Below are positions 47,407 to 64,000 of a stretch of DNA of 64,000 nt, piece by piece. A program made the translations under genes and the position numbers. The notes beneath the pieces were generated by a model. The model did not search any database, was not told the origin of the DNA, and saw nothing but the letters and a program-made list of their open reading frames with translations. The DNA is from Candidatus Latescibacterota bacterium. Its GTDB lineage: Bacteria; Latescibacterota; UBA2968. Positions within the stretch are counted from its first letter, which is position 1. Every line of letters begins with the position of its first letter. The stretch is from assembly GCA_965198115.1 (NCBI GenBank), contig OZ240241.1, positions 64,001 through 128,000 on the forward strand, read 5' to 3'.

Positions 47407-50250
47407 TCAAGAAGAGGGAATCGTTGTCACAGAATCGGCCGTGCGCGCGAAAATGTGCTCAACCCCCGCTGCGTCTCTTCCGTCCCGGCCATCTTTTCCC
47501 TGAGCGCCCTGTCCACCATCCTCGCCGCGTAGATCACTAACGTCCGTCGATCCCAGCACCACCGGAGCCGTGAAGTCACTCCATTGTGAGGTGCCAGTGT
47601 TCCAGGATCTGGCAGTCCGCCAGATGACGACGGACCCTGAAGTTGGTTTTATCCTCGGAATCGAATCGAAGTCAGTCCAGCCGCTCGGCACAAAGTCGTC
47701 ATTTACGCGGTCGGCTTCCGACGGATATGTTGGGGCTTGAGGCGGACTGGCAAGCAGGCTCCATTTGTAGAATTCCTGCGGCGGTTTTCCCGATTCTCCC
47801 TGGGCACCGTCCTCGCCTTCGACTCGAATAGGTGTGTCGTGCACCCATTCCGTCGCAAGTATGGTGCGGACACAGGAGTAAAGGGGCGTCGCCCGTGGGC
47901 GGGTCTGTGGACCACCCGGTGTCGGGCGCGGGATAGTTTGCTGGATTCCTGTCGGCTGGCTGGTTGGCCGGTTTTGGGGTGTCGTGGTCTGCCGTTTGTA
48001 GATGACGTCGATGTTTGTTGCGGTGGCCACGAGGCGAGGCGTCGAGAAGGTCAGGGATGTGTCGGTCCCTCCGGCCGTCGCCGTGGCGCCGACGGTGGAG
48101 GCGAACACATATTCGAGTTTCGGATTGAGGTTGTCCGGCCACTCTAGTGTCACGTCCCGCGTATAAGCTTCAAAAGTTTATGGACTTTTCTCGAGGATTG
48201 AATCTGCCGTGGCGGTCCAGACGAAGGGTGTAGAATTCTCGTTGTAGTGATCAGTGAATTTCTTGATGCAGGCGATCAGGTCCTTGACGCTTCTGAAGGT
48301 GCCTCGTCGAATGGCTCTTTGGGTGATGATACCGAACCAGATCTCTACCTGGTTCAGCCAGGAGGCATATGTTGGTGTGTAGTGCACGTGATATCGTTTC
48401 CGTGAGGCGAGCCAACGCTTGACGTTCGGGTGCTTGTGCGTGCCGTAATTATCGACGACCAGATGGATGTCGAGATCCTTTGGGACGTTCTTGTCGATGT
48501 GCTTGAGGAACTGAAGGAACTCTTTGTTGCGGTGTCTGGGCTTGCACTGAGTCAGAACTTTGCCGGATGCGATGTTGAGCGCTGCAAAGAGGGTGGTCGT
48601 GCCGTTCCGGATATAGCTGTGAGTGACGCCCTCGACGTATCCGAGACCCAAAGGAAGAATCGGTTGTGTCCGTTCGAGTGCTTGAATCTGGCTCTTCTCG
48701 TCTACACAGAGCACCATCGCGTTGTCCGGTGGGTTCAGGTATAGACCGACGATATCCCTGACTTTCTCGACGAAGAAGGGATCGTTCGACAGTTTGAAGT
48801 GCTTCTGTCGATGCGGTTGCAGTCCAAAAGCTTTCCATACACGTTGAACCGAGGACTTGGAGAGCCCCGTCTCGTCGGCCATCGAACGACAGGTCCAGTG
48901 GGTGGCACCCTTCGGTTGCTTCTTGAGCGTCTTGTAGATGAGGGAGGAGATCTCTTCGTCGCTGACCGACCGTGGCCCTCCAGGACGCAATTCGTCATAC
49001 AGTCCCATCAAGCCTTGCTCGCAGAAGCGACGACGCCACTTGCCGACAGACGCTCCGGACAACCCGACTCGTTCCGCGATCTCCTGATTGGTCAGACCGC
49101 AATCGCTCATCAAGACGATCTTCGCGCGACGCACCAAAGCGTGAGACATGCTACGCGAACGAGACAATGACTCGAGTTGATCGTGGACCTCATCACTGAT
49201 GTTCAGTGGCTGTAACGGACGACCTCTAGCCATCGGTTCCTCCCAAGAATGAGTGCTTGAGGAACCATACGACAGAATCGAATATTTTTCTAGTTATTCC
49301 TGGGACGTGACACTAGAGACCATGGCGACGCAAGGCCGGTAAATGTGCTCGTGGCAAAGTCGTAGTTGGTGGCCGTGGGGAGGGGCAGGGCGACGCCGCC
49401 CCCGAGCGCTGACGCCGTTTCGGTGACTGTGGCTTTGCGAAACACGATGAGCTCTGCCACAGACAGGCCGGCTATTCCCTGTGCTTGTTCGCCGGGTGTG
49501 ACTGTGGCCTTGACTTCGCCCGAAGCGTTTCCCCATGTGTCGATGTGTCTTATCCAGACGTCGAGTGTGTCTGTGGCGAGGCCGGGACGGGAGTAGGACG
49601 AGCCGGCTCTGGTGGCGCGTAGTGTGGCGTCGGTGAACGCCGTTCCCGTCGCGGCGTCGTAGACTTCTGTGTGGTGGTAGTCGGTGTCGGGGGATGCCGT
49701 CCACGTTGCCTGGTATCCCGCGGGCAGGGAGGTGATGGTGAAGTTTTCGGGATCTGCCGGCGGGATCTGGTCGCCCTCTACAATGACGGCTGCGGCGGCG
49801 GTCCAGTTCGACGAGATGTTTTCTCGGGACACATGGCGGAGTTGGTATTCAAAGTCGCTTGGGGGCAGGGGTGCGACGCGTATGGGAGACTCGGGGCTGT
49901 TTAGAAAAATCCACTGTGTGTCTTCGGCTTTGCGGTATCGGAGGTCGGTGTTCGTGGTGACCGTGTCGCCCCACCCGATTGTGAATCCTGCAATGGACGT
50001 TCCGTCTTGGATTTTTTCGATAAAGGCCGTGGCCGTGACGCCCGTGGGGATCGCGACGTCGGTAGGGTCGGCGATGTCGACGGTGTCGGAAAAAATGCCC
50101 GGGGGTGCGGCTTGCGCCTCGATGCTGACGGACCAGTTGTCGTTGACGGTGACGGTTAACACCTCGGCAAAGAAATCCGAAAGTCCGTTTTCGGTGTCGT
50201 TGATTTTATGCGGTCCGTGGGCCTGACTTTCAACCAGCTGTAGTCCGATC
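47407..50250 (-). pseudogene. Phage tail/host-specificity protein fragment (Fn3-like, short collagen-like runs) split by IS630
   Basis: IS removal joins ..ASPWSL|EWPDNLNP..; GDQIPPADP, WIRHIDTWGN, GEDGGQGAQGKDGRDG. Confidence 0.6.
48145..49315 (-). mobile_element. IS630-family element (type B)
   Basis: TIR TAGTGTCACGTCCC at both ends in a CTAG target; VDEKSQIQ, VDNYGTH, ASWLNQVE. Confidence 0.93.
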
Positions 50251-50326
50251 CCGGAGCCACGGTGTAGGCAAAGCGCTTGTATGCGTGTGCCCTGCGCAGG
50301 GCAATGGCCATTAGACGGTCTGCCGC

Positions 50327-51700
50327 GAGCTCAGGTCAATAGGTGTGTAAAAGAAATCAGGCGGCCATCTTCCCGGCTTCGACCTGCGGTCCGGTTGAGT
50401 GTTTCTGATCGTAGACTTGTTGTAGCAAGTGTGGCGCGGTGAGTTTCCTGAATCGGCTCTCTGCGACCTTGAGCGTACGCCAGATGAGAGCCGTGGCGTT
50501 CCTGACTTTCTTGAATCGCCTGGCGGCGTTTGTGCGAAGCCGAACGGAAGCAAAGGGGCTCTCGACGACGTTCGTGGTTCTCAGGTGTTTCCAGTGTTCC
50601 TTCGGGAAGTCGTAGAACGTGACCATCCGATCCCAGTTTCTTTCGAGCGTCTCCACGGCGGCAGGGAACTGTGAGCGATACCGTGCGGCAAAGCGTTTCC
50701 GGAGCTTCTCGGCCTCCTTTTTCGTGCCGGCATAGGGGATCTGGACGAGCAGTGCGCGGGCTTCAGCCTGTGCACGCTTGGCGACCTTGTCGAGCACGTT
50801 GAGGATCTTGTGGTTCCAGCACCGTTGTTGCCGGCTCTCTGGCCAGACCTGATCAACGGCCGCCCAGATGCCCATATTCCCGTCCGCGGCGATCAGGACA
50901 GGATGTTCGAGCCCGCGATCCCGGAGATCCCGGAGCACCGTGAGCCAGGATTCTGTAGACTCTCGATAACCGGGTTCTATCGCCAGGATCTCCTTGCTGC
51001 CGTCGCTCATCGCGCCGATCACGACCAGCAGACACGCCTTCTCGCGCTCGAGCCCGGCTTTGACGTAGATGCCATCAGCCCAGGCGTAGACCAGTTCGCG
51101 ATTATCCAGACGCCTTTCTTTCCAGTCCTGGAAGTCGACCTCCCACTTCCCTCGAAGACGAGCGATCGAGGTCGGCGAAAGCGGCGCGCCATCACCGAGC
51201 AGCGCACGCAAAGACAACTCGAAGTCGCCCTGGGAGAGACCGTGGAGATAAAGGTCGGGAAGCAGATCTCCAATGGCCCTGGTTCTCCGGGCGAACAGGG
51301 GGAGGATGCGGCTTTCAAACCGCTCTTCCAGACCACGAGCCCGGGGACGCCGGACCTTGATCGTTCCGCAGCTCGTCGAGAGACGCCGGGGCTTGCCGTA
51401 GCCGTTCCTGTAGCCCGTGGAGCTATCGACCTCGGCTCGGCGCTCATACCACGACCGGCCCAAGAACGCGGTCGCCTCCTCCTCCAGAATGGACTGGAAC
51501 CGGCCCTGGATCTCTTCACGGATCCAATCGTCAACCGTCTCCCACGTCGGCATGGACTTCAATGGGGCTCTATGCGTATGTTCCTTCACGGCGATCCTCC
51601 TTCCCAACCGGGCCTCTCACCCGGTTTTGTGTGAATCAACTATCTCACGGGAAGGGTAGGGTCGCCCTTTCTCTTTTTCCACACCTTTTGATTATAGCTC
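50327..51700 (-). mobile_element. IS256 type A, intact copy
   Basis: Near-identical to 9220-10593. Confidence 0.93.
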
Positions 51701-51859
51701 TCGATGTCTTTGACCTCATAAATGCGCTACTTAACCAAGCTCGACTTCGTCGAATCAGAGCGGATGAATGTCTATATCCTGCAAGTCATGTCGATCTTAT
51801 GTCAGGGCTACTGCTCACCCAAATATCTCTACTACCTTCTCCCGGGACACTGCGAAGTG

Positions 51860-53080
51860 AGGTGCTTATACCGAATGTGGAAGACTTCAGAGACCGTTGG
51901 GATCGGGCTGTCGATGCGCTTGCGACAGCGGTAGAGACTCTTCGGCACCCCCAAATGTATGGTTCGATATCGTCAAAGTACCTTCCCTACGTTTCGATTC
52001 TTCCTGCCTTCGCTGCGTTACAAATTGCACGTTCCTCCAACCGGCAGCTTGGATGCGAACGAAAGATTCGACATTGGTACTGGGCAAGTGTATTTACCAA
52101 TCGCTACTCGGGATCGGTAGAATCAACAAGCGCCCGAGACTACCTTGATGTAAAGGCGTGGTTCGACAACGACGCGGCAGAGCCTGCTCTTATTGCCGAA
52201 TTCAAAGCGCGATTCAGGGGGCTTGAGTTACGTCGTGAGACCCGTCGAGGAACTTCCGTTTATAACGGGGTTTTCAACCTGCTCGTGCTTAGGGGGGCTC
52301 AAGATTGGATGACGGGTCACGCGCCGAAGTACGATGATCTGGATGATCATCACATAGTACCCAAGAGTTGGGGCAGTGATCGAAAGCTTGAAACTTCTAT
52401 CGATAGTATTCTTAACCGAACGCCTTTAACTGCTGACACGAATCGGAATGTCATTCGCGAACGCTTGCCGAATGCCTATCTGCCAGAATTAATCAAAAAT
52501 AATGGGGAGGGCACGGTCTGCGCTACGCTGGAGTCTCACTTCATCTCGCCAAAGGCATTCGATATACTGCTGCGTGATCCTTTCACCGAAACCGACTTCG
52601 AGGAGTTTCTCGTTGAACGTCAGAGAACGCTTCAGGAAGCCATTGAGGGCCTGCTCGTGAAGGAAAGGCTGGACCTGCCGCCACAACTTAGAGAGTTAGA
52701 CGCACAGGTGGAGGCAGTCGAGCTTTCTCTAAGACAGATCGTAAACGAAGAACTCAACGGCCAAAACGCCGACATTCCCTCTCACGTAGCACAGAAGATT
52801 ACCGATAGGTTGCAGACGGCATCGAGAAGGAATCCTGCTTTGGACGCCGATCACTACGAAAGTCTTGAGGGAAGACTTGAATATGCTGACTTACGTGATT
52901 TACAGGATACCGTCACGAACAAGGGGCTGTGGTCGAGGTTCGAGCCACGCTTGGGGAATAAGGAGGCCCTCGTGCACCGTTTCGGGCAACTCGCTGAGCT
53001 TCGCAATGGAATCCGACACAGCCGGACGGTGGACGAGATGACGCGCAAGGATTGGGAAGCAGCCCTCTTTTTTTCCAAAG
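51860..53080 (+). pseudogene. GmrSD (DUF262)-type nuclease C-terminal part with Swt1/HEPN-like tail
   Basis: WYWASVF..RYSGS, DDHHIVP..N..TN (HNH-like), C-terminal RNGIRH. Confidence 0.7.
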
Positions 53081-53422
53081 GTATTGACCTGCCCCCACCT
53101 TTGTGTCCACATCCAAAGTTAGGATGCGGCCGCGATGGGCGGTTTGATGACCGCCGGTGCGGGTGGCCGCCGCGATGCTTATCGCTTGGCTCACTGGGGA
53201 CTTTGCGAAGGCTTCGTCGGCTACGGGCACTGGAGTCGTCTTTCCGTTTCTACGTCGAGAATTCTTGAGCGCATCGGTGGATCGTCAGGTCGGGCGTCCC
53301 GATCCGCTTTCACGCCTCTCGCCGGCTGCCACCCGCCCAGCTTGAGGGGGGGACCGATCCAGGGGCCGTGGCCTTCACCTCTCCTTGGGGTTCCCGGTCC
53401 GATTGACCATCGCTCGTCGGAG

Positions 53423-53765
53423 CTTAGTACTCCTGTTCGCAAATACGGTGACGTATTCTAAGCAGACTTTGCCAAGGGCGTATCGTAGAACCTGAGTTTG
53501 TCGATCATCTCCGCGAGATCTGTTCGTGTGAACTTCCATTTGAAGGGTGTGGCGATACGTCCGTAGCGTTCCTGAAAACCGAGGATTCTTGCCTCAAGCT
53601 CTTCGAGCGATGCAAATTCGATAGGTGTCAGAGCCTTGCGTTTGAGGATCGAGAAGTAGATCTCGATCTGATTGAGCCAGCTTGCGTGGATCGGAAGGTG
53701 AACGGGGTGGATGTTTGGCCACTTCCCCTGGATACGGTCGATGCATGTTTGCCCTCGGTGCGAGG
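53423..53765 (-). mobile_element. IS630 type A 3' fragment
   Basis: Matches the last ~340 bp of type A. Confidence 0.88.
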
Positions 53766-54093
53766 GTCGCAAGAGATCGTCTTCGTCGAACGCCGCCCTG
53801 AACGACGGCGGGCATCAGCTTGTATCCGTCCTTCCGCCTCCGGCCTGAAAGTCGCCCAGGTCCTGATCGTAGAGGCGCTCGAGCAGGGCCTCCCTCCGGC
53901 TCTTCGGCAGGGCTTTGAAGTTCCGCGCGTCATCGGGGACCGGCGCTACCGCCGCGACGGTAGAGGCCCGGCCGTCGACCCACACCACGAGGTGCGACAG
54001 CTCCTCACTGCAGCCGCCTGAAACCATCACATGCCGCTGTCCAATTTCAACAGCGAAAAAGACATTGCCGATACATAGGTGGGGGCAGGTCAC

Positions 54094-56130
54094 GGTGTTG
54101 TGCCTATCCTAGTTGAAACTTAGTACTCCTGTTCTCAAATACGGTGACGTATTCTAAGCAGACTTTGCCAAGGGCGTATCGTAGAACCTGAGTTTGTCGA
54201 TCATCTCCGCGAGATCTGTTCGTGTGAACTTCCATTTGAAGGGTGTGGCGATACGTCCGTAGCGTTCCTGAAAACCGAGGATTCTTGCCTCAAGCTCTTC
54301 GAGCGATGCAAATTCGATAGGTGTCAGAGCCTTGCGTTTGAGGATCGAGAAGTAGATCTCGATCTGATTGAGCCAGCTTGCGTGGATCGGAAGGTGAACG
54401 GGGTGGATGTTTGGCCACTTCCCCTGGATACGGTCGATGCATGTTTGCCCTCGGTGCGAGGAGCCATTATCCACGATGAGGTAGACTTTCTTTGCCGAGC
54501 AATAGGGTTTCCGGCTCATGATCAGGCTCAGGAGCCGGTTGAAGGGCTCGATACCCGAAGAAGACTCACAGAGACCGAAGATTCGACCATTGTGCACGTC
54601 GAGAGCAGCCAGATAGGCCAGGGCTCCTTTCCGCTCGTATTCGTGTTTCAACGCGTGCCGCTCTGTTCGAGGCTGGCGGTAGGGTAACGTGCTTGCGAGC
54701 TCGTGCTTGAATACTGGTCTTTTCGTCGGCAGAAAGTACATATTCCCTCGGCCCTAAAGGCTTTCCTTGCCATTGGCGGTGATACAGATCAAGGACTCTA
54801 CCTGCTTTGGTTTGGAAGTCCGGGTCCCGTGGGAAAATCCAGGAGCGATGATACCAAGGACGAATCGCGTCCTCGTTCAACCAGCGCCAGACAGTGGCGC
54901 CGCTGATCTTGGCAACGAAGCCCCTTTGCACTGCCTCGGCGGCAATCTCGGAACAGCTGAACCGCGAGAGCGGTATCCCGCTCTCGCTCGGTAGTTCACA
55001 CGCCAGCGCCTTGATCTGAACGACCACCTGAGGGGGGAAAACCGGGCGGGCGCCCGGGACGAGATCTATCTTCGAGTCCCGAAAGACGCTCTTCGAAAAA
55101 GCGCTTACGCCATTTGCTTACGATCGGACGCGGGACATCCAACCGTTGGGCGATAATCTTGTTGGATAATCCCTCGGCGGCGAGAAGCACGATTTTCGAT
55201 CGGATCACTTGATAATACGGTAACGTATATTGTCCAGCCATTCGCTCGAGGTCGACCCGTTCCTTCTCAGACAGTAGCACCACATAAGGCGAACGTCTTG
55301 GCATTGTTCTCCTCCTTTTGAAGGAGAACATAAGCTACAAATAATGTTCAGGACATACGTAATAATATTTATGAAACTATGCACTTAGAGGGCTCCAAAC
55401 TTACGTTGGGTAGACGTGTAGGAGCGTATACCCGTAAGAAAGGAGCCCAGATGGAGAAGCTATTTGTAGGCGATGGTGAAGTCAAGGTTGAGGGCGATGT
55501 CATCGATTTGGAGACGCGTTTGTCGGTGATCCAGGCGTTGATCCCGTTGGGTCTGGAGGCAGTGGCAGACCTCCTCCAGCAGGAGGTCGAGCAGCTCGCA
55601 GGCGTTCGGTATGCGCGCAAAGGTTCGGAGCAGGCGCATCGTCGGTGGGGAAGCCAGAAGGGATCCGTGTATCTGATGGACCAGAAGCTCCCGTTAGACG
55701 TTCCCCGGGTGCGCGACGTCAAGGCCGACGCAGAGGTTTCCTGGCTGCATACCGGGCTCTACAGACGCCCAAGAAGACGGACGAGGGGCTGTTGCTTCGT
55801 GTTCTCAAGGGGATCTCGTGCCGCAACTACAAGGCCTGTGCCGAATCGGTTCCAGAAGCGTTTGGTATCTCAGCGTCCTCCGTCTCGCGGCGGTTCATCA
55901 AAGCCACCGCGAAGAAGCTGAAGCAGTTCCAGGAGCGTCCCCTCGACGACTACGGCTTCGTGACCCTGTTCATTGACGGAAAGAGCTTTGCCGACGAAGA
56001 GATCGTGATCGCTCTGGGGGTCACGATTGGACGGCCAGAAGATCCCCCTGGGCTTCGTCGAATCGGCGACGGAGAACGAACGGATCTGCCGCCAGCTGAT
56101 CCAGGACCTCATCCGGAGAGGCCTGTGCTA
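54094..56130 (+). mobile_element. IS256-family type B 5' part (frameshifted, truncated)
   Basis: End GGTGTTGTGCCTATCCTAGTTGAAA; ORF from 55451 with VPRVRD, GISCRNY, LFIDGKSF. Confidence 0.8.
54119..55388 (-). mobile_element. IS630 type A copy inserted in the left end of IS256 type B
   Basis: CTTAG flanks; near-identical to the other copies. Confidence 0.92.
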
Positions 56131-56355
56131 GCCGGGACCACGTCTTGCGATGCGTTTTTTTGGAACGCCAGGCTTGCCCAACACATCGAGGTTAGAATTT
56201 TTGGAAAACGCGTAACACATCTTGTCTTGGGGGGTTATTGACCACACTCCGATTGCTGTTACCAGTCGTCTTATTTATTCGTAACTAATTGTCGTGCAGT
56301 GAAGTATGCGATTCATGCAGCTGGCATCAGGACTGGATAAGCAAGGTGGAGCAGA

Positions 56356-56985: not shown

Positions 56986-58275
56986 ATGCGCACCATCACC
57001 ATCGTTCTAGCCGGATGCCTGATTCTGAGTCTCTCTTCGACGGCGCAGGCTCAGACCCGGCCCGGCAACCCGATTCACGATTTCACGCTGCAGGATTTAA
57101 ACGGGAACAACCACCGCCCGAATCAATACAGCGGTCAGGTCCTTCTCCTCTTCCTCCTCGGCCACAACTGAGGCCTCTGTCGGGCGGCGGCGCCGCTCGT
57201 GCAGCGGGAGGTCGTAGATGTGCATCGGGGCAAGCCGGTACAGATGCTCGGCGTCGACCTGTGGAACGGTTCGCAGTCGCAGCTGTCCCTGTTCCGTTCA
57301 GTGACGGGGGTCGACTTCCCGTTGCTGCAGAGAGCGGGAACGGGCGGAATCCCCTGGGGTCTGGGCGTTGAGAACATCGTCGTGGTCAACCAGGAAGGAA
57401 CCATCCACGACATCTTTGACATCTCGGATCGTCGCCGGCTCAACGAGGCGGTCGACTTCCTGCTGACACCCGTGCCTGCGCCGGTATCCCGGCTTAACCG
57501 ATCCTCGCTCGACTTCGGCTCAACCGGACTCGTCGGAACCGACATCAGCCTCGTCCTCACGGTCGAAAACACCGGTGACGCACTCCTCGAAGTCTCGAGC
57601 ATCACGTCGGACCACTCCGACATACGGTTCGATCAGAGCACGTTTACGGTCAACCCCGGGGACCGCGAAGACGTCACCGTCACCCTCTCCCCGACGGATG
57701 CAGGCTCGATCTCCGGTCGCGTCACGGTCACCACGAACGACCGCACCTGGACGCTACTCGTCGACCGGATCACCATCGAACGGCCGCTGCCGATGATCGC
57801 CCTACCGGCATCTATGCTCGACTTCGGTACGATCGAGGTTGGACGCGCCGACTCCCTGGGGCTGGAGATTCGGAACGATGGACCGGGTCCGCTGAACGTG
57901 ACGGACGTGCGGACGGACATTCCGGGCATCACATTCTCCGCCCGGGCCTTCACCGTAGCTGCAGGTGAGGTTTCCACGATCACCATCCTCGTGGACGCCC
58001 AAACCGAAGGCCTGATCAGTGGCATCGTCGAGATCATCAGCAACGACCCCGATATGATGAGCTCGACCGTCACGATCTCCGCGACGGCAGAGATCGACGT
58101 CGCAGATGCACGCGCAGACTTCGATGGCAGCGGCACGATCGATTTTACCGACTTCCTGGGCTTCGCGGTCGCCTTCGGCACATCCGATTCGGCCTACGAC
58201 ATCAACGAGAATGGGCAGGTCGATTTCGCAGACTTCCTGATCTTTGCACAGAATTTCGGGAGAATCGTAAACTAG
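56986..58275 (+). CDS. Secreted selenoprotein: AhpC/TSA(TlpA)-like UxxC domain, two ASH/Ig-like domains, EF-hand dockerin-like domain
   Basis: 56986..57171 and 57199..58275 are in one frame separated by a single TGA (57169) in HN-U-GLC. Signal peptide; DFTLQDLNG; LDFG..VENTGDALL; DFDGSGTIDFTDF..DINENGQVDFADF. Confidence 0.85.
57177..57204 (+). promoter_or_regulatory. Bacterial SECIS-like hairpin
   Basis: CTGT-CGGGCGGC-GGC-GCCGCTCG-T-GCAG immediately 3' of the in-frame TGA, with a G-containing apical loop. Confidence 0.65.
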
Positions 58276-58349
58276 CCTGAATCATGCATGAATTTGAGTT
58301 TAGGTTGTTTTGGAGTGATGTGACCGTCTCGGGAAACCGAAAGGAAGCC

Positions 58350-60173
58350 ATGAGAACCTTTGCCCTGTTTTGCCTGTTCATCCTGGGACATCCCAACGCC
58401 ACACATAGCCAGTTCCAGGTTGACAAGGAGGAAGTCAACCCCTGGTCGCATCTCGACTTCAAGCACGACCCGGACGACTTCCAATTCGTGATCATCACGG
58501 ATCACACCGGAGGGCATCGTCCCGGGATCTGGGCGAAGGCGATGAAACGGATCAACCTGCTTCAGCCGGAGTTCGTCGTTTCGGTCGGTGATATTATCGA
58601 AGGCTACACGGAGAATGTGGCGACGCTGGACGCGGAGTGGGCCGAAATGGAAGGGATGATCAATACACTGAACATGCCGTTCTTCTACGTCCCCGGGAAC
58701 CACGACATCTCGAACTCCACGATGCTCGAGGTCTGGAAGAAGCGATTCGGCAGGCACTACTTCCACTTCGTCTACAAGGATGTCCTCTTCCTCCTGATGG
58801 ACAGCGAAGACCCACCTGGAACGAATGTAAGTGAGGCACAGATTGCGTATATGGTGAGGGCCCTCGCCGACAATCCAGACGTGCGGTGGACGCTGCTTTT
58901 CATCCACAAGCCGATGTGGGTCTATTCCAACAAGAAGGAAACCTGGGATCGGATGGATGCGCTGCTCAAGGACCGACCGCACACGGCCTTTGCCGGACAC
59001 CGACATCGCTACATACAAAACACGCGTCTCACACGTGAATACTACACGCTCGCAACGACCGGCGGTGGGAGCAATCTCTCGGGCCTGGAAGCCGGAAAAT
59101 TCGACCACGTCGCGTGGGTAACGATCACCGACAAGGGTCCGCTCATCGCAAACCTGATGCTGGACGGCATTCAGCCGGGCGACCTGCGCACCGAATACAC
59201 CGCTTCACTGACCACTCCCCTGATCGCCAGACGCGCGATGCTGACCGGCCCTCTACTCTCGACCCGATCTACCTACAACGGTGACAGGACGACGATCCGC
59301 GTGCACAACCCAGGCGATCGGCCGCTCCACGCAGAGGCCGCTTTCGAAGTGCACGAAGACTTGCGGCCAACGCCGCGCTCGTTCAAAATGATGGTCGCTC
59401 CGGGCGAAACTGAGGTGATTCCCATTCAGGTTGGGATCGAACGAAAATCGAAGATCACCGACCTGGATCCGCTCTTCCTGGGATGGACGCTCCGGTATGA
59501 CCTGCCGGATCACGAGCCTCTACGAGTGGAGGGGAAAAGCCGTCTGCTACCGGAACGGATGATCAGGATCGATCAACGCAAGAAGCCGCCTACCGTCGAT
59601 GGTCTGCTCGAAGACTGGAAGAAGCTGCCACTGGGAGACGATCAGCCTGTTCAGATAAGCCAGTGGAGACGGACCTGGGATGGACCCGAGGACGGTAGTT
59701 TCCGGTTCACGGCCCTGGCGGACGAGAAGTATCTCTACGTCGCTGTTCGTACCCGCGACGACGAGGTCGTCAAGGGCGAGGACAAGCCAGGACGCCGTAA
59801 AGACGGCATTGTCATACACGTCGACGGTCAGTCAGAACCCGATCGGTCTGTAAGCCACGGGGCGCCCGAGGAGGGGCTGATTGTGTCGCTGCGGCCGGAT
59901 GAGGCATTCACAGGAGCCGAGAACAGAGGCTACGAATTCCCTGAAGGATTCACTGCCGTGTGCGTTTCGGGAGACGGCGGGATCACCGCAGAGATCGCCA
60001 TACCCGCGGAATACCTAAACGCGAAACAAGGTCGGCGCTGGGACACGGTTCGCTTGAACGTGTCCTTCTACGACTACGACAGTGGACACGGTCGCGGGTC
60101 GCATCTGTGGTGGCGGCCAGAATGGCGATCAGCACAATCCTACGCAGGATCTGGGACCTTCGTTCGGAAATAG
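58350..60173 (+). CDS. Exported calcineurin-like metallophosphoesterase with C-terminal CBM9/DOMON-like domain
   Basis: ITDHTG, VGDIIEG, PGNHD, FIHKP, AGHRH; PTVDGLLEDW..YLYVAV..DD..AEIAIP. Confidence 0.85.
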   Translation: MRTFALFCLFILGHPNATHSQFQVDKEEVNPWSHLDFKHDPDDFQFVIITDHTGGHRPGIWAKAMKRINLLQPEFVVSVGDIIEGYTENVATLDAEWAEMEGMINTLNMPFFYVPGNHDISNSTMLEVWKKRFGRHYFHFVYKDVLFLLMDSEDPPGTNVSEAQIAYMVRALADNPDVRWTLLFIHKPMWVYSNKKETWDRMDALLKDRPHTAFAGHRHRYIQNTRLTREYYTLATTGGGSNLSGLEAGKFDHVAWVTITDKGPLIANLMLDGIQPGDLRTEYTASLTTPLIARRAMLTGPLLSTRSTYNGDRTTIRVHNPGDRPLHAEAAFEVHEDLRPTPRSFKMMVAPGETEVIPIQVGIERKSKITDLDPLFLGWTLRYDLPDHEPLRVEGKSRLLPERMIRIDQRKKPPTVDGLLEDWKKLPLGDDQPVQISQWRRTWDGPEDGSFRFTALADEKYLYVAVRTRDDEVVKGEDKPGRRKDGIVIHVDGQSEPDRSVSHGAPEEGLIVSLRPDEAFTGAENRGYEFPEGFTAVCVSGDGGITAEIAIPAEYLNAKQGRRWDTVRLNVSFYDYDSGHGRGSHLWWRPEWRSAQSYAGSGTFVRK

Positions 60174-60313: not shown

Positions 60314-61150
60314 GGTCAAGTCCTGAGAGTCCTGCAAAAAGCCACGCCGTGAACGTGGTCTCCTGAGCGTTAGGCGACCGCCTCCCAGTTCGATGGGAGA
60401 GCGAGTTCGCGTTCTTCGTAGAGCATTGTGAGCTGAAGATATTCGGTGGAGGTGATGCTGATGGCCTGCCACCTTGCCGCAGCTCGGATGAGGACAGCGT
60501 AGACGAGTTTGAGGCAGCTCTTCTCAGAGAAGAATCGGGGCAGCGTTTTGGTCCTGCGGCGCTCCTCGACGAAGCTGTGTTCGATCAGGTTGGTCCTGAG
60601 CCGCCAGGGGAGCTGGAGGTGTGCCAGCAGCGCGTCCAGGTCCTCGGTGAGGCACTTACACAGGCCCGGGAACTCTTTGCTGAACTTGGCCAGAAACTCG
60701 CGCACGGCCTTCTGTCCGGCCTCCAGATCCGGGGCGTCGCGGATCATCAACAGATACGGTTTGATCTCGTGCCAGCGGGACTGGGGAACCTTGCTGGCGA
60801 AGTTCCGCATCCGGTGCACCCAGCAGCGACCGCGCAGGCTCTTGGACCACATCTGATCGACGGCCTGAATGAGTCCGCCGGCACCGTCGGTGGTGATGAA
60901 CAGAGGTGTGGGCAAGCCGCGACGATCGAGGTCGCGAAGGAACTCGAGCCAGGCCTCGCCGCTCTCTTTGTTGCCCAAGGCCAGAGAGATCATACCTTCC
61001 GGCCGTCCAGGGTGATGCCAGGCGCACAGGATGGCTTCGCGGGTGATGCCGTGGGTGCGCAACGGTTCGTAGAGCCCGTCCAGAAACAGGCACAGGAGCG
61101 GAAGGTCACTGAGGTCACGGTTCTGGAAAGCCTCGTATTGTTCCCCAGAG
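60314..61150 (-). mobile_element. IS256-family type C 3' fragment
   Basis: TTDGAGGL, RCWVHRMRN, RTNLIE..F.E.RRR. Confidence 0.8.
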
Positions 61151-61267
61151 AACCTCGGTCACCTCGCTTGTGCTCACAACGACGACATATAGCCTTACGC
61201 AATGAATCTTTCCACGTCATAAATCCTCCTTACCGCGTCTGAACGCCCATCTGAGAGAGGGTAGTTC

Positions 61268-61576
61268 CTAACCAGGGGCGGCAGTAAGGACCCTGTAGAG
61301 CAGGCCAAAGATAGGAACGGCCAGCAGAACGATGAGCGGCCAAATCACCCGCCAGACCACCTTCTCCAGCGTGTCGATCCGCGAGTTGACTTCGGAAAAC
61401 CCTGCCTTCATCTCGGTCTTCATTTCGGTGATCTGGGCTCCGAGGACAGCAATGACGTTCTGGCTGGCTATTTGGCGGACTTCCTCGATGGCGGCATGGA
61501 CCACCTGGGGGTCCGGTTCGGGGCTGCTCAGAGCTTGAAAGAGCGCATCGGTAACGGGTTCAGCCGGGGTTGCCAT
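61268..61576 (-). CDS. Small coiled-coil protein with C-terminal TM helix
   Basis: AGGAG RBS; ITEMKTEMKAGFSEVNSRIDTLEK followed by a hydrophobic tail. Confidence 0.6.
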   Translation of the reverse strand: MATPAEPVTDALFQALSSPEPDPQVVHAAIEEVRQIASQNVIAVLGAQITEMKTEMKAGFSEVNSRIDTLEKVVWRVIWPLIVLLAVPIFGLLYRVLTAAPG

Positions 61577-61672
61577 CAAAAATCTCCTTGTTCAGGCAAT
61601 CGACCCGGATTACCTAGCCAACGCCCCGCAGAGAAACCAATCATGAACTGAAACTTTGGTGACGCTCCCTGA

Positions 61673-62080
61673 TCAGCACGTTTGGTCCTGTAACAGCGCG
61701 ACACCCTCAAGCCGTGCTGCCTTCTGATCGAACGTATACAGGGGGTGGGCTCCGGATCGTTCAGTTGCGGCCAGTATCATCAGGTCGGAAAATCCTGCGC
61801 TGCCTGTGCGGTAGCGGAAGGCCGCACGGGCCACATCGTCGGCTGCCTCAATCACGAGACCCTCGGTCGCCACCAGTTCTTCCAATACCGTCGCAATCTG
61901 GTCACGGGAGTAGCCGTAGGCGCGGTTCAGTACCCAGGCAAGCTCAACTGTAACCTCGCGGCAGACGTAGCCGGGAAGGTCAGCTGTGAGCGACTCCAGT
62001 AATGACCGGGCGGCCTCCGCCTGTTCGGTGTTGTCGCGTACCAGATAGCGGGCGAGGACGTTGGTATCGAGTGCGATCAT
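61673..62080 (-). CDS. vapC: VapC-family PIN toxin
   Basis: IALDTNVLAR, ELAWVL, GFSD, YTFD. Confidence 0.9.
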   Translation of the reverse strand: MIALDTNVLARYLVRDNTEQAEAARSLLESLTADLPGYVCREVTVELAWVLNRAYGYSRDQIATVLEELVATEGLVIEAADDVARAAFRYRTGSAGFSDLMILAATERSGAHPLYTFDQKAARLEGVALLQDQTC

Positions 62081-62310
62081 CCCTTACACGCCCCGTCGGC
62101 TATGGCCTGCTCCATTTCCTCCAATGTGACAGCGGGACCTTTATGCTGTAGCATGCCGAACAGTCGACTGATCGGGCGAACGGCCAGAATTCGCACCTCT
62201 CCGTTGGAAATAACGTAGCGCACCCGGTCCCCAGCCTGTACACCAAGCGTCTCACGCACAGGTTTGGGTAGTGTCGTCTGTCCCTTCTTGGTAATAGAGG
62301 ACTCGATCAT
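62077..62310 (-). CDS. AbrB/PrlF-type antitoxin
   Basis: ITKKGQTTLPKPVRETLGVQAGDRV; ATGA overlap with the toxin gene. Confidence 0.88.
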   Translation of the reverse strand: MIESSITKKGQTTLPKPVRETLGVQAGDRVRYVISNGEVRILAVRPISRLFGMLQHKGPAVTLEEMEQAIADGACKG

Positions 62311-62742
62311 GGTGACCCTCCAGTCTCCTTCCAACATGCAATAAGTGCTTACTTAAATCAATAAGGTAAGGCACTGTCGTAGTTAGCCACCCTGGGCTCT
62401 GAGTTTCCACTTGCCCCTGTGAGAGGCTCTTCGGAACCCTCGCTTTACAGCGCGCGGGCTATAATGCATGTCGGTTGTGTGAATTCTATAAGAAGTCATA
62501 TAGACATCAGATAGCAATCTCGCTCTTAATTGCTGAGGGTAGGGTAGACCGGGGGACCCTCTCTGCTGCGGTGCGCTCGCCTCAGACGAAAAAGGGAGGG
62601 GTGCCAACTCAACCCAAGGTTGTAACTCTAGCTGCTGGGTATTCACGTGGACTCTTGGATGGGTGAATTCTCACCTTGATTTCTGTAAGATGTCTATGCA
62701 ATGTCTTAAAGACATCAGTAACTTTCAACACGGACGACTCTA

Positions 62743-63018
62743 ATGATAATCACCGTTGGCGGCATCAAGGGCGGCTCAGGCAAATCCACTGTCGCCACTA
62801 ATCTGGTGGTACTGCGCTCTCTCGAAGGCAGAGATGTGCTGCTGATTGACGCTGACACCCAAACCACCTCATCCGATTTCAGCCTACAGCGCAACAACAA
62901 GACCAATGGCAACGCTGGCTTCACTTGCATCAATCTCGCGGGTCAGGCCGTGCGTACCGAAACCTTGCGCTTAGCGGACAAGTATCAAGACATCATTATC
63001 GACACCGGTGGGCGGGAC
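62743..63018 (+). pseudogene. parA: ParA-family ATPase, truncated by IS
   Basis: KGGSGKST, LLIDADTQ, IIIDTGG. Confidence 0.85.
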
Positions 63019-64000
63019 GGTGAGGTCCCTATCCTAGGAGCCTGTCGGAGTACCCAGCCGGAGGAAGATTTCGTATTGTAGAAGTGCGATCAAGGTTCCG
63101 ACTCTGAATTGGAGGTTTCCGTTGAGCACTTCTACTCGGTTTCGTGTCTACAATCCGGCTCAGTTGATGTTGCTGCCTCCGGATCTCCGGAGTTGGCTTC
63201 CCAAGGGTCATCCGACCTACTTCATTCTGGATATCGTCGGACAACTTGATTTGTCCGCGATCTACGAGACCTACGATGGGTCTCAAGGTGGCCAGCCACC
63301 GTTTGTTCATCGACGGAAAGAGCTTTGCCGACGAAGAGATCGTGATCGCTCCGGGCGTCACGACGGACGGCCAGAAGATCCCCCTGGGCTTCGTCGAATC
63401 GGCGACGGAGAACGAACGGATCTGCCGTCAGCTGATCCAGGATCTCATCCGGAGAGGCCTGTGCTACGACCAGGGCCTTCTCGTTGTGCTGGACGGCTCA
63501 AAGGGACTCCGCAGTGCCGTCACCAAAGCCCTCAAAGGGGATGTGTGCGTGCATCGCTGTCAGTGGCACAAGCGCGAGAACGTCGTCAGCTACCTCCCGG
63601 AGGCAGAACGTCCAAGAGTTCGACGGAAACTTCAGAAAGCCTATGACTGCGACACCTACGAGGAGGCAAAGGCCGCACTCGAATCACTCAAACCCGAACT
63701 CAAGCTGATGAATCAGTCTGCCGTGGCAAGCCTCGAGGAAGGACTGGAGGAAACCCTGACCCTCCACCGGCTGGGGATGCTCCCGTTCTTGAAGCGAAGC
63801 TTCCGAACCACCAATTGCATCGAGGCGCTCAACAGCATGACCGGCAACCTGATACGGAAGGTCAACCGCTGGAACAACTCTCCTCAGCGACACAGATGGG
63901 TCGCGGCCGCACTCCTCGACATCGAACCACGCCTGCGACGCGTGAGCGGATACAAACACCTCCCGCTGCTCAGGCAAGCACTGAAAAACAACCTGAATCT
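63019..64000 (+). mobile_element. IS256 type B end, IS1182 5' fragment (63038-63301) and IS256 type B internal part
   Basis: GGTGAGGTCCCTATCCTAG|GAGCCTGTCGGA; then FIDGKSF.., HRCQWHKRENV, SFRTTNCIE. Confidence 0.8.

Follow-up and report, generated by a model that had tools for sequence, protein, structure and literature searches.

The window analysed here, a stretch of 64,000 nucleotides within an 8.43 Mb single-contig Latescibacterota genome (G000), carries a gene that is almost certainly a real, unannotated selenoprotein, in which an in-frame TGA would place selenocysteine (Sec) at the first position of a UxxC motif. The read-through product joins a likely signal peptide to a redoxin head of the ResA/TlpA fold, two Ig-like domains and a dockerin-like tail, and it probably belongs, with a canonical TlpA and a predicted DUF6029 barrel, to a thiol module of the outer membrane that has so far gone undescribed. 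Whether it forms the surface end of a thiol relay running from TlpA through the barrel to the selenoredoxin is, in our estimate, an even bet.

An in-frame TGA followed by a SECIS-type hairpin

ORF analysis of the window gives a single frame at 56986-58275 (+) of 429 codons plus TAG, with exactly one internal stop, and orthologues of the same length that also carry a TGA occur in four other genomes (G001, G002, G007 and G010). The internal stop is the TGA at 57169-57171 (+), residue 62, which opens the motif U-G-L-C in the context LFLLGHN-U-GLC (continuing RAAAP); the second residue of the pair, C65, lies at 57178-57180 (+). A preliminary description of this DNA had recognised a 429-residue read-through protein with the TGA at the first Cys of a TlpA/AhpC-type CxxC, and had expected gene callers to split it, all of which our analysis bears out: the database protein for the window gene (P0002, 343 aa) begins downstream of the TGA, and this gene and its four nearest relatives are represented only by post-TGA fragments (five matches among 289 candidates). 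The same description named TGC, TGT or TGG in the reads as an observation that would speak against Sec; contigs from five other runs, among which X1 may be the source sample, span the gene and show no letter other than TGA at the site. Two sponge metatranscriptome contigs also bridge the TGA without a difference, in libraries where DNA is possible; they reach no further than the 5' part of the gene and are uninformative on its expression level. Recoding of TGA as Trp was considered and ruled out, as the tRNA-Trp reads CCA and TGA ends 3268 long frames in G000.

Of the genes for Sec insertion that it had been suggested to look for, selA, selB, selC and selD, all are present in G000 (profile search: selA 565 bits, selB 347, selD 363 and tRNA-Sec 74.6, each over cut-off). 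The genes selA, selB and selC are grouped near C1:3.585-3.590 Mb; selD, at 4.009 Mb, itself carries a TGA with a hairpin C[GGUC]G at offset 17. Immediately after the TGA of the window gene, where a GC-rich hairpin with a G loop had already been noticed, we find a bacterial SECIS-type hairpin at 57181-57199 (+), CGGGCGGC[GGC]GCCGCUCG. Section 5 of PMC13188914 describes a bSECIS model with a loop of 3-9 nt carrying a G in its first two places, a stem of 4-16 bp, a spacing of 16-37 nt and an energy of at most -7.5 kcal/mol; the window hairpin agrees with that section on all four points (3 nt GGC loop, 8 bp, 17 nt after the UGA and -13.1 kcal/mol). Among the 3268 TGA stops of long frames in G000, such a hairpin occurs at 33 with an energy of -7.5 kcal/mol or lower and at three with -13.1 kcal/mol or lower. 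Within the family, a G-loop hairpin at offset 15-19 (-4 kcal/mol or lower) accompanies 33 of 38 TGA sites as against 4.8% of 6921 control codons, the apical stem alone reaches -7.5 kcal/mol or lower in 19 of 38 homologues as against 1.0% of the 6921 controls, and the two G's of the loop, one of them at a third codon position, are invariant. Covariation was examined in two registers picked by eye from the alignment, one significant and one not: pairing in the family register G[GGUC]C reaches 82.7%, a level attained by none of 500 shuffles, and the window's own best register shows no significant covariation (27 and 22 of 500 shuffles). RNAalifold gave no consensus hairpin. The whole region folds in a manner unremarkable for its GC content (z 0.32, -1.65, -0.49 and 0.55), so that the hairpin counts by position and conservation and not by energy alone.

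De novo genome-wide scans for read-through TGA codons were too noisy to yield a selenoproteome list, and only candidates with recognisable motifs were kept. These include two ResA-like candidates with the motif WASW-U-GCR, one at C1:3586006 (-) between selB and tRNA-Sec (L014; 143 of 300 bits on NCBIfam WAxxUGC_long) and one at C1:4086278 (-). Motifs also point to a formate dehydrogenase-like candidate at C1:1088597 (+) (U-HAP) and a Bcp-type peroxiredoxin at C1:3251421 (-) (PRASTGG-U). Two further candidates are a 560-codon frame at C1:4771267 (+) with GVGH-U-STC and a C[GGUC]G hairpin, and a likely lipoprotein at C1:7747667 (+) with LLSPT-U-GVC.

Architecture of the read-through protein

The proposal of an exported redoxin on a stalk fits the predicted structure. 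Residues 1-22 (56986-57051, +) form a likely Sec/SPI signal peptide by inspection and hydropathy, with a basic N-terminus, a hydrophobic core (sliding hydropathy mean up to 2.9), the sequence AQA-Q and a low-pLDDT helix at residues 6-14. The redoxin head follows (residues 23-163, 57052-57474, +), matched by the Pfam AhpC-TSA family (PF00578) at residues 27-114 with an E-value of 5e-6, over cut-off. Downstream lie two Ig-like domains, also as first described, at 57481-57783 (+) (ASH/HYDIN, choice-of-anchor D) and 57787-58095 (+), identified by domain profiles (HYDIN/ASH, E 9e-20 and 3e-18) and in the model, where this stalk superposes on ASH domains. Each domain of the AlphaFold model is confident (mean pLDDT 89.9), and the pTM of 0.47 indicates flexibility between them. 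The tail (58102-58272, +), first described as a double EF-hand, has two Ca-loop/helix repeats; Pfam places its EF-hand and Dockerin_1 matches (residues 377-421) below cut-off (Dockerin_1 18 of 22.9 bits), and a profile built from 38 tails finds its best PDB match, over the whole length, in the 71-residue cellulosomal module 2y3n_B (E 1.4e-12), ahead of partial matches to calmodulin.

The head shows a thioredoxin fold with TlpA-type insertions and the active-site motif at a helix N-terminus in the model, and superposes on the ResA/TlpA type with a Z of 19.6 to 2ls5 and about 19 to ResA (rmsd 2.0-2.5). It shares with ResA, TlpA and CcmG this fold (Z about 19, rmsd 2.0) and the N-terminal export signal, but it has GHN-U-xxC instead of WCxxC, Glu, Asp or His at the cis-proline position, Sec, a stalk and a tail, and its identity to them is 16-21%. 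In the sequence register against ResA, established via P0012, the cis-proline that precedes the third core strand is absent and E129 (57370-57372, +) takes its place; the 37 Sec forms have E in 17, H in 12 and D in 8, and D occupies the position in 113 of 140 other homologues. According to passages in PMC2757866 and PMC2665069, the cis-proline belongs to the substrate site and prevents metal binding, and in peroxiredoxins an Arg stands in its place. Neither that Arg nor the peroxiredoxin motif PxxxTxxC/U is found in the head. With Glu, Asp or His at this position, the head is less readily called a general disulfide reductase; the residue would fit a dedicated partner as well as a metal site. 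Three NCBIfam models match below cut-off, namely ResA (26.9 of 170 bits) and, far short of theirs, the selenoprotein families TUGYCR (25.4 of 100) and OS_HP2 (40.6 of 100, on the Ig domains).

A Sec/Cys redoxin family and the setting of the window copy

Matches to the head come from 39 of 41 close genomes and, across the phylum, from 84 of 151, every one of which belongs to the class of the host. Of 39 distinct sites in the fetched loci that correspond to U62, 38 read TGA; the only TGC comes from the Bacteroidetes record G151, in which a search for selA gave no match. CxxC is present in 130 of 148 distant representatives; the anticipated alternation of Cys and TGA is thus seen. At the position of C65, all 37 Sec forms and 136 of the 140 other homologues have Cys. 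The expectation that homologues keep Cys or Sec at the site applies to nearly all of them, but in 10 of the 140 distant representatives that cover the site (eight do not) one or both Cys are absent. Examples are P0019, P0044, P0076, P0116, P0121, P0138 and P0141 (NDTS, AxxC, AAAS, ASVA), of which P0019 retains the full Ig-Ig-dockerin architecture and the others mostly end in a TWGxIK tag. Members in genus g4 (L047, L048, L040 and G089:C1:862024) have very long Ig stalks, with read-through frames of about 800-1700 codons.

The window gene is the only intact family member found in G000. It lies among IS remnants, away from the TlpA-DUF6029 operon, which is intact in two duplicated copies at C1:1.133 and 3.201 Mb; the redoxins behind both copies have the same two frameshifts. 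Besides these there are a truncated third near-copy and two disrupted distant paralogues. Some of this duplication may be an assembly effect (the contamination figure for G000 is 5.1%), and the broken copies, about 94% identical, are not among the contigs from other runs, which show presence and not absence. Detached, and the sole intact member found, the window gene would have to act in trans.

On both sides the gene is flanked by densely packed transposase-like genes and pieces of such genes, at 48178-56241 and 60370-63998; one of these elements, at about 54118-55388, recurs in G000 in more than 60 near-identical copies. The stop codon of the gene is itself part of a 52-bp IS end that starts from CTAG (58272-58323), the same end occurring at about 45 other places in the genome. 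Elsewhere in G000, 20 tightly packed tRNA genes at C1:2870558-2872531 (-) suggest an integrated element. The next gene (58284-60173, +) encodes a calcineurin-like metallophosphoesterase, likely exported, with a CBM9-like C-terminal domain; it was not seen beside the homologues whose neighbours were scanned and is not counted as a partner.

Association with TlpA and a DUF6029 barrel

Directly upstream of homologues, in Latescibacterota loci and in the Bacteroidetes record, stand a canonical TlpA (WATWCKPC) and a DUF6029 protein of about 510 residues. Across the 151 genomes of the phylum the redoxin was found in 84 and DUF6029 in 89, with both in 80, neither in 58, the redoxin only in four and the barrel only in nine; the Sec redoxin proved to be present after all in three of three barrel-only genomes checked. 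Because the genomes are kin, this co-occurrence overstates the case. In 54 of the 80 genomes holding both, the two genes lie within 2.5 kb of each other (22 downstream on the same strand, 21 downstream on the opposite strand, 10 upstream opposite and one upstream on the same strand). One genus accounts for 20 of the 26 non-adjacent cases, and in that genus tilS follows the barrel in most loci seen. No DUF6029 match came from G003, G112 or G120, or from G001, the closest relative, whose genome is 95% complete. TlpA stands upstream of the barrel in 25 of 30 loci, as judged by the longest upstream frame per locus. In the distant family f3 all three genes occur together in 12 of 13 loci, where the redoxin tails are a CTD in ten, a dockerin in one and WGGIK in one. 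G000 also encodes a DsbD-type membrane domain. In two genomes of a single genus, the TlpA-DUF6029-redoxin operon is immediately preceded by a cysteine desulfurase/Sec-lyase-like gene (L042:2-1211 and L043:3-884), accompanied in L042 by a DsrC-like gene.

The barrel found here is a divergent subtype of DUF6029 (PF19494, E 3e-12). Its model (pLDDT 77.6, pTM 0.75) is all-beta, with about 24 long strands by our count, and the nearest solved folds are the PapC/FimD usher pores (TM about 0.5); we describe the protein as a predicted outer-membrane barrel of usher size. C473 and C478, invariant in 26 of 26 sequences as is the terminal Phe, are its only conserved Cys residues, and the model places them on a low-confidence, flexible hairpin (residues 470-481) just before the last strand. 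By barrel topology, the loop before the last strand is an outer loop. The pair it carries could also be a plain structural disulfide.

Canonical DUF6029 is found in 58 of 81 sampled genomes of the class to which the Bacteroidetes record belongs. All 30 canonical loci examined have the Cys pair; 20 have a TlpA upstream, recognised in 19 cases by the WAxWC motif and in one by Pfam, and 23 have a CxxC protein downstream, identified as Omp28 in six of six tested. The barrel is thus still framed by a TlpA and an exported CxxC protein, one at either side, even when the latter comes from another family. The Bacteroidetes barrel subtype itself was found in one of 151 genomes of its class at E-values up to 1e-15, so that the exact trio is rare there, and a metagenome scan with this barrel gave no match. 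In our literature search DUF6029 turned up in one paper, which treats it as uncharacterised and as a possible polysaccharide-export pore (PMC9603273).

Dockerin-like tails, cohesin-like adaptors and export

The tails of 148 head homologues are mutually exclusive: 79 have a CTD, nine WGxIK, eight a dockerin and 19 a possible lipoprotein signature, and 33 have none. The window protein lacks the C-terminal Por_Secre_tail domain that these 79 carry. As dockerin, CTD and WGxIK tags replace one another on the same head, a surface location is suggested for the window protein.

The genome encodes candidate partner modules. We counted 61 dockerin-like frames in G000 (44 C-terminal, eight N-terminal and nine internal) and 10 places where Pfam cohesin (PF00963) scores over cut-off. 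Profiles made from the Pfam matches then picked up 33 cohesin-like domains, spread over 23 frames, and a profile search gave 22 frames with T9SS-like CTDs; a dockerin-cohesin-CTD cassette recurs. SprA and PorV are present, and no GspD was over cut-off in G000. The cohesin-like domain of a minimal signal-cohesin-CTD adaptor, encoded at C1:1278187-1279050, is matched in 41 of 41 relatives, with the CTD in 29 of 30 fetched loci. Its PDB matches are weak (E 0.19-0.94), to what we take to be cohesin-bearing proteins, and it has no Pfam Cohesin match at 1e-3. Complex prediction for the tail and the adaptor's cohesin-like domain (alignments A5 and A4) together with two Ca gave a score of 0.17 against a mark of 0.32, which weighs neither way. 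On the strength of these modules and of the tail exchange we lean towards display of the redoxin at the surface by putative cohesin binding; co-export on a cohesin-CTD carrier is one possible way for a protein that has no CTD to cross the outer membrane. The genome also encodes large scaffoldin-like proteins that combine cohesin-like, dockerin and CTD modules (C1:1024346-1030082, 4277801-4281326, 5024476-5027295, 7645438-7651818 and 8209469-8219643), several of them seemingly split by frameshifts.

Discussion

The preliminary description had the architecture of the protein right and missed the Glu at the cis-proline position, the alternation of the tail with secretion tags, and the module formed with TlpA and DUF6029. 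Taken with these, our best explanation runs as follows. SelB and tRNA-Sec would with near certainty decode UGA62 at the SECIS, given the machinery and hairpin observed, and the signal peptide would carry the protein to the periplasm. The tail, in place of a T9SS tag, would rather likely hold it on cohesin-CTD adaptors at the surface. Electrons may pass from a DsbD to the canonical TlpA, from there to the barrel's last loop with its CxxxxC hairpin, and on to a U62-C65 selenenylsulfide, a putative flow for which the gene content, the genomic linkage and the invariance of the Cys residues speak. The resulting selenolate could reduce oxidised surface proteins or small disulfides and peroxides. Sec stays reactive and resists over-oxidation in oxic seawater, and for that reason it would suit a surface reductant. 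More tentatively, we picture the protein as the selenium-tipped outer terminal of a thiol electron conduit across the outer membrane, displayed by its dockerin on type IX-exported cohesin adaptors; conduit and display route together would then, with the same reserve, amount to cellulosome-style tethering in a diderm phylum.

Parts of this arrangement have known counterparts. DsbD, CcdA and ScsB are helical inner-membrane relays in which a membrane Cys pair sits between two thioredoxin-fold partners; the logic proposed here is alike, but would operate across the outer membrane through a beta-barrel. The uncharacterised Bacteroidota trio of TlpA, DUF6029 and Omp28 likewise pairs a TlpA and a barrel with a last-loop Cys pair with a third exported CxxC protein, whereas the third gene here belongs to another thioredoxin-fold family, contains Sec, and carries a dockerin or CTD where the Bacteroidota protein has a lipoprotein anchor. 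Cellulosomal cohesin-dockerin systems resemble ours in the tail, which matches a dockerin chain over its length, and in the cohesin domains of the same genome, but here the host is diderm, the cohesin-like domains are fused to T9SS-like CTDs, the cargo consists of redoxins and miscellaneous exported proteins, and the binding is putative. Predicted UxxC selenoproteins listed in Table 1 of PMC13188914 (PF00578 Prx-like, PF08534 redoxin and cd02966 isomerase-like) share the fold class, the UxxC motif and a UGA with a SECIS; none of the 119 families of that table is entered with a signal peptide, Ig stalk and dockerin, or with a link to an outer-membrane barrel. Our literature search, for which subscription journals were mostly outside the scope and supplementary selenoprotein lists may hold members, returned no description of the redoxin family or the trio, no account in print of the conduit or the dockerin/cohesin-CTD display route, and no selenoprotein study of Latescibacterota; the main text of Youssef et al. 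2015 (PMC4454575) has no mention of dockerin, cohesin, scaffoldin, cellulosom or seleno.

Among other readings, the one we take most seriously, though we think it unlikely, is that the protein works alone, as an exported antioxidant or thiol-disulfide oxidoreductase of the periplasm or surface recycled by small thiols or periplasmic reductases; in that event, and just as improbably, the barrel Cys pair would be structural or serve another job. The window copy, the G001 copy and those of genus g4 do lie apart from DUF6029, the fold is ResA/Bcp/AhpE-like, and UxxC Prx-like or redoxin selenoproteins are a class listed in Table 1 of PMC13188914. Against this, redoxin and barrel stay adjacent in four gene arrangements and in two phyla, canonical DUF6029 too has a TlpA and a CxxC protein of another kind as neighbours, and the head is without the PxxxTxxC motif and Arg of peroxiredoxins. 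The acidic or His residue at position 129 raises a distinctly less probable option, metal handling, in which U62, C65 and E129 would form a surface site for a soft metal (Cu, Zn, Hg or Ni) that, with equally low odds, would go on to the Cys pair of the barrel and to TlpA, to be taken up or detoxified; all 37 Sec forms have E, H or D there and 113 of the 140 others have D, yet the residue varies among three types and no metal transporter or regulator stands among the neighbours scanned.

It is highly improbable that DUF6029 is an export pore for the redoxin or for a polymer, with TlpA keeping the cargo reduced and the dockerin capturing it outside. The barrel is indeed usher-sized, the window protein has no CTD, and a possible role of DUF6029 in polysaccharide export has been suggested (PMC9603273); however, the redoxin has its own CTD in 10 of the 12 f3 loci with the trio and so needs no private pore there, and in G000 sixty other dockerin-bearing frames would have only two barrel genes to share. 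Least credible of all, to the point of being nearly negligible, is a TGA that is a genuine stop, arises from a sequencing error or is recoded in another way, which would make the gene a pseudogene or two genes. G000 is full of IS elements, the other five copies and paralogues are broken, and the contamination figure of 5.1% leaves room for assembly artefacts, but the TGA is conserved across a bacterial class at a Cys position with a SECIS and the full machinery, is present in the contigs of five other runs, and occurs in a genome whose tRNA-Trp reads CCA and where thousands of frames end in TGA.

The window gene belongs to a class-wide, multi-copy selenoprotein family that is present in databases only as truncated fragments. 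The swapping of CTD, WGxIK and dockerin on one domain is a pointer to how Latescibacterota display exported proteins. If the thiol relay were shown, it would be a categorically new module and would answer how diderm bacteria could keep surface proteins reduced; were it true, it would also give a function to the widespread DUF6029 barrel.
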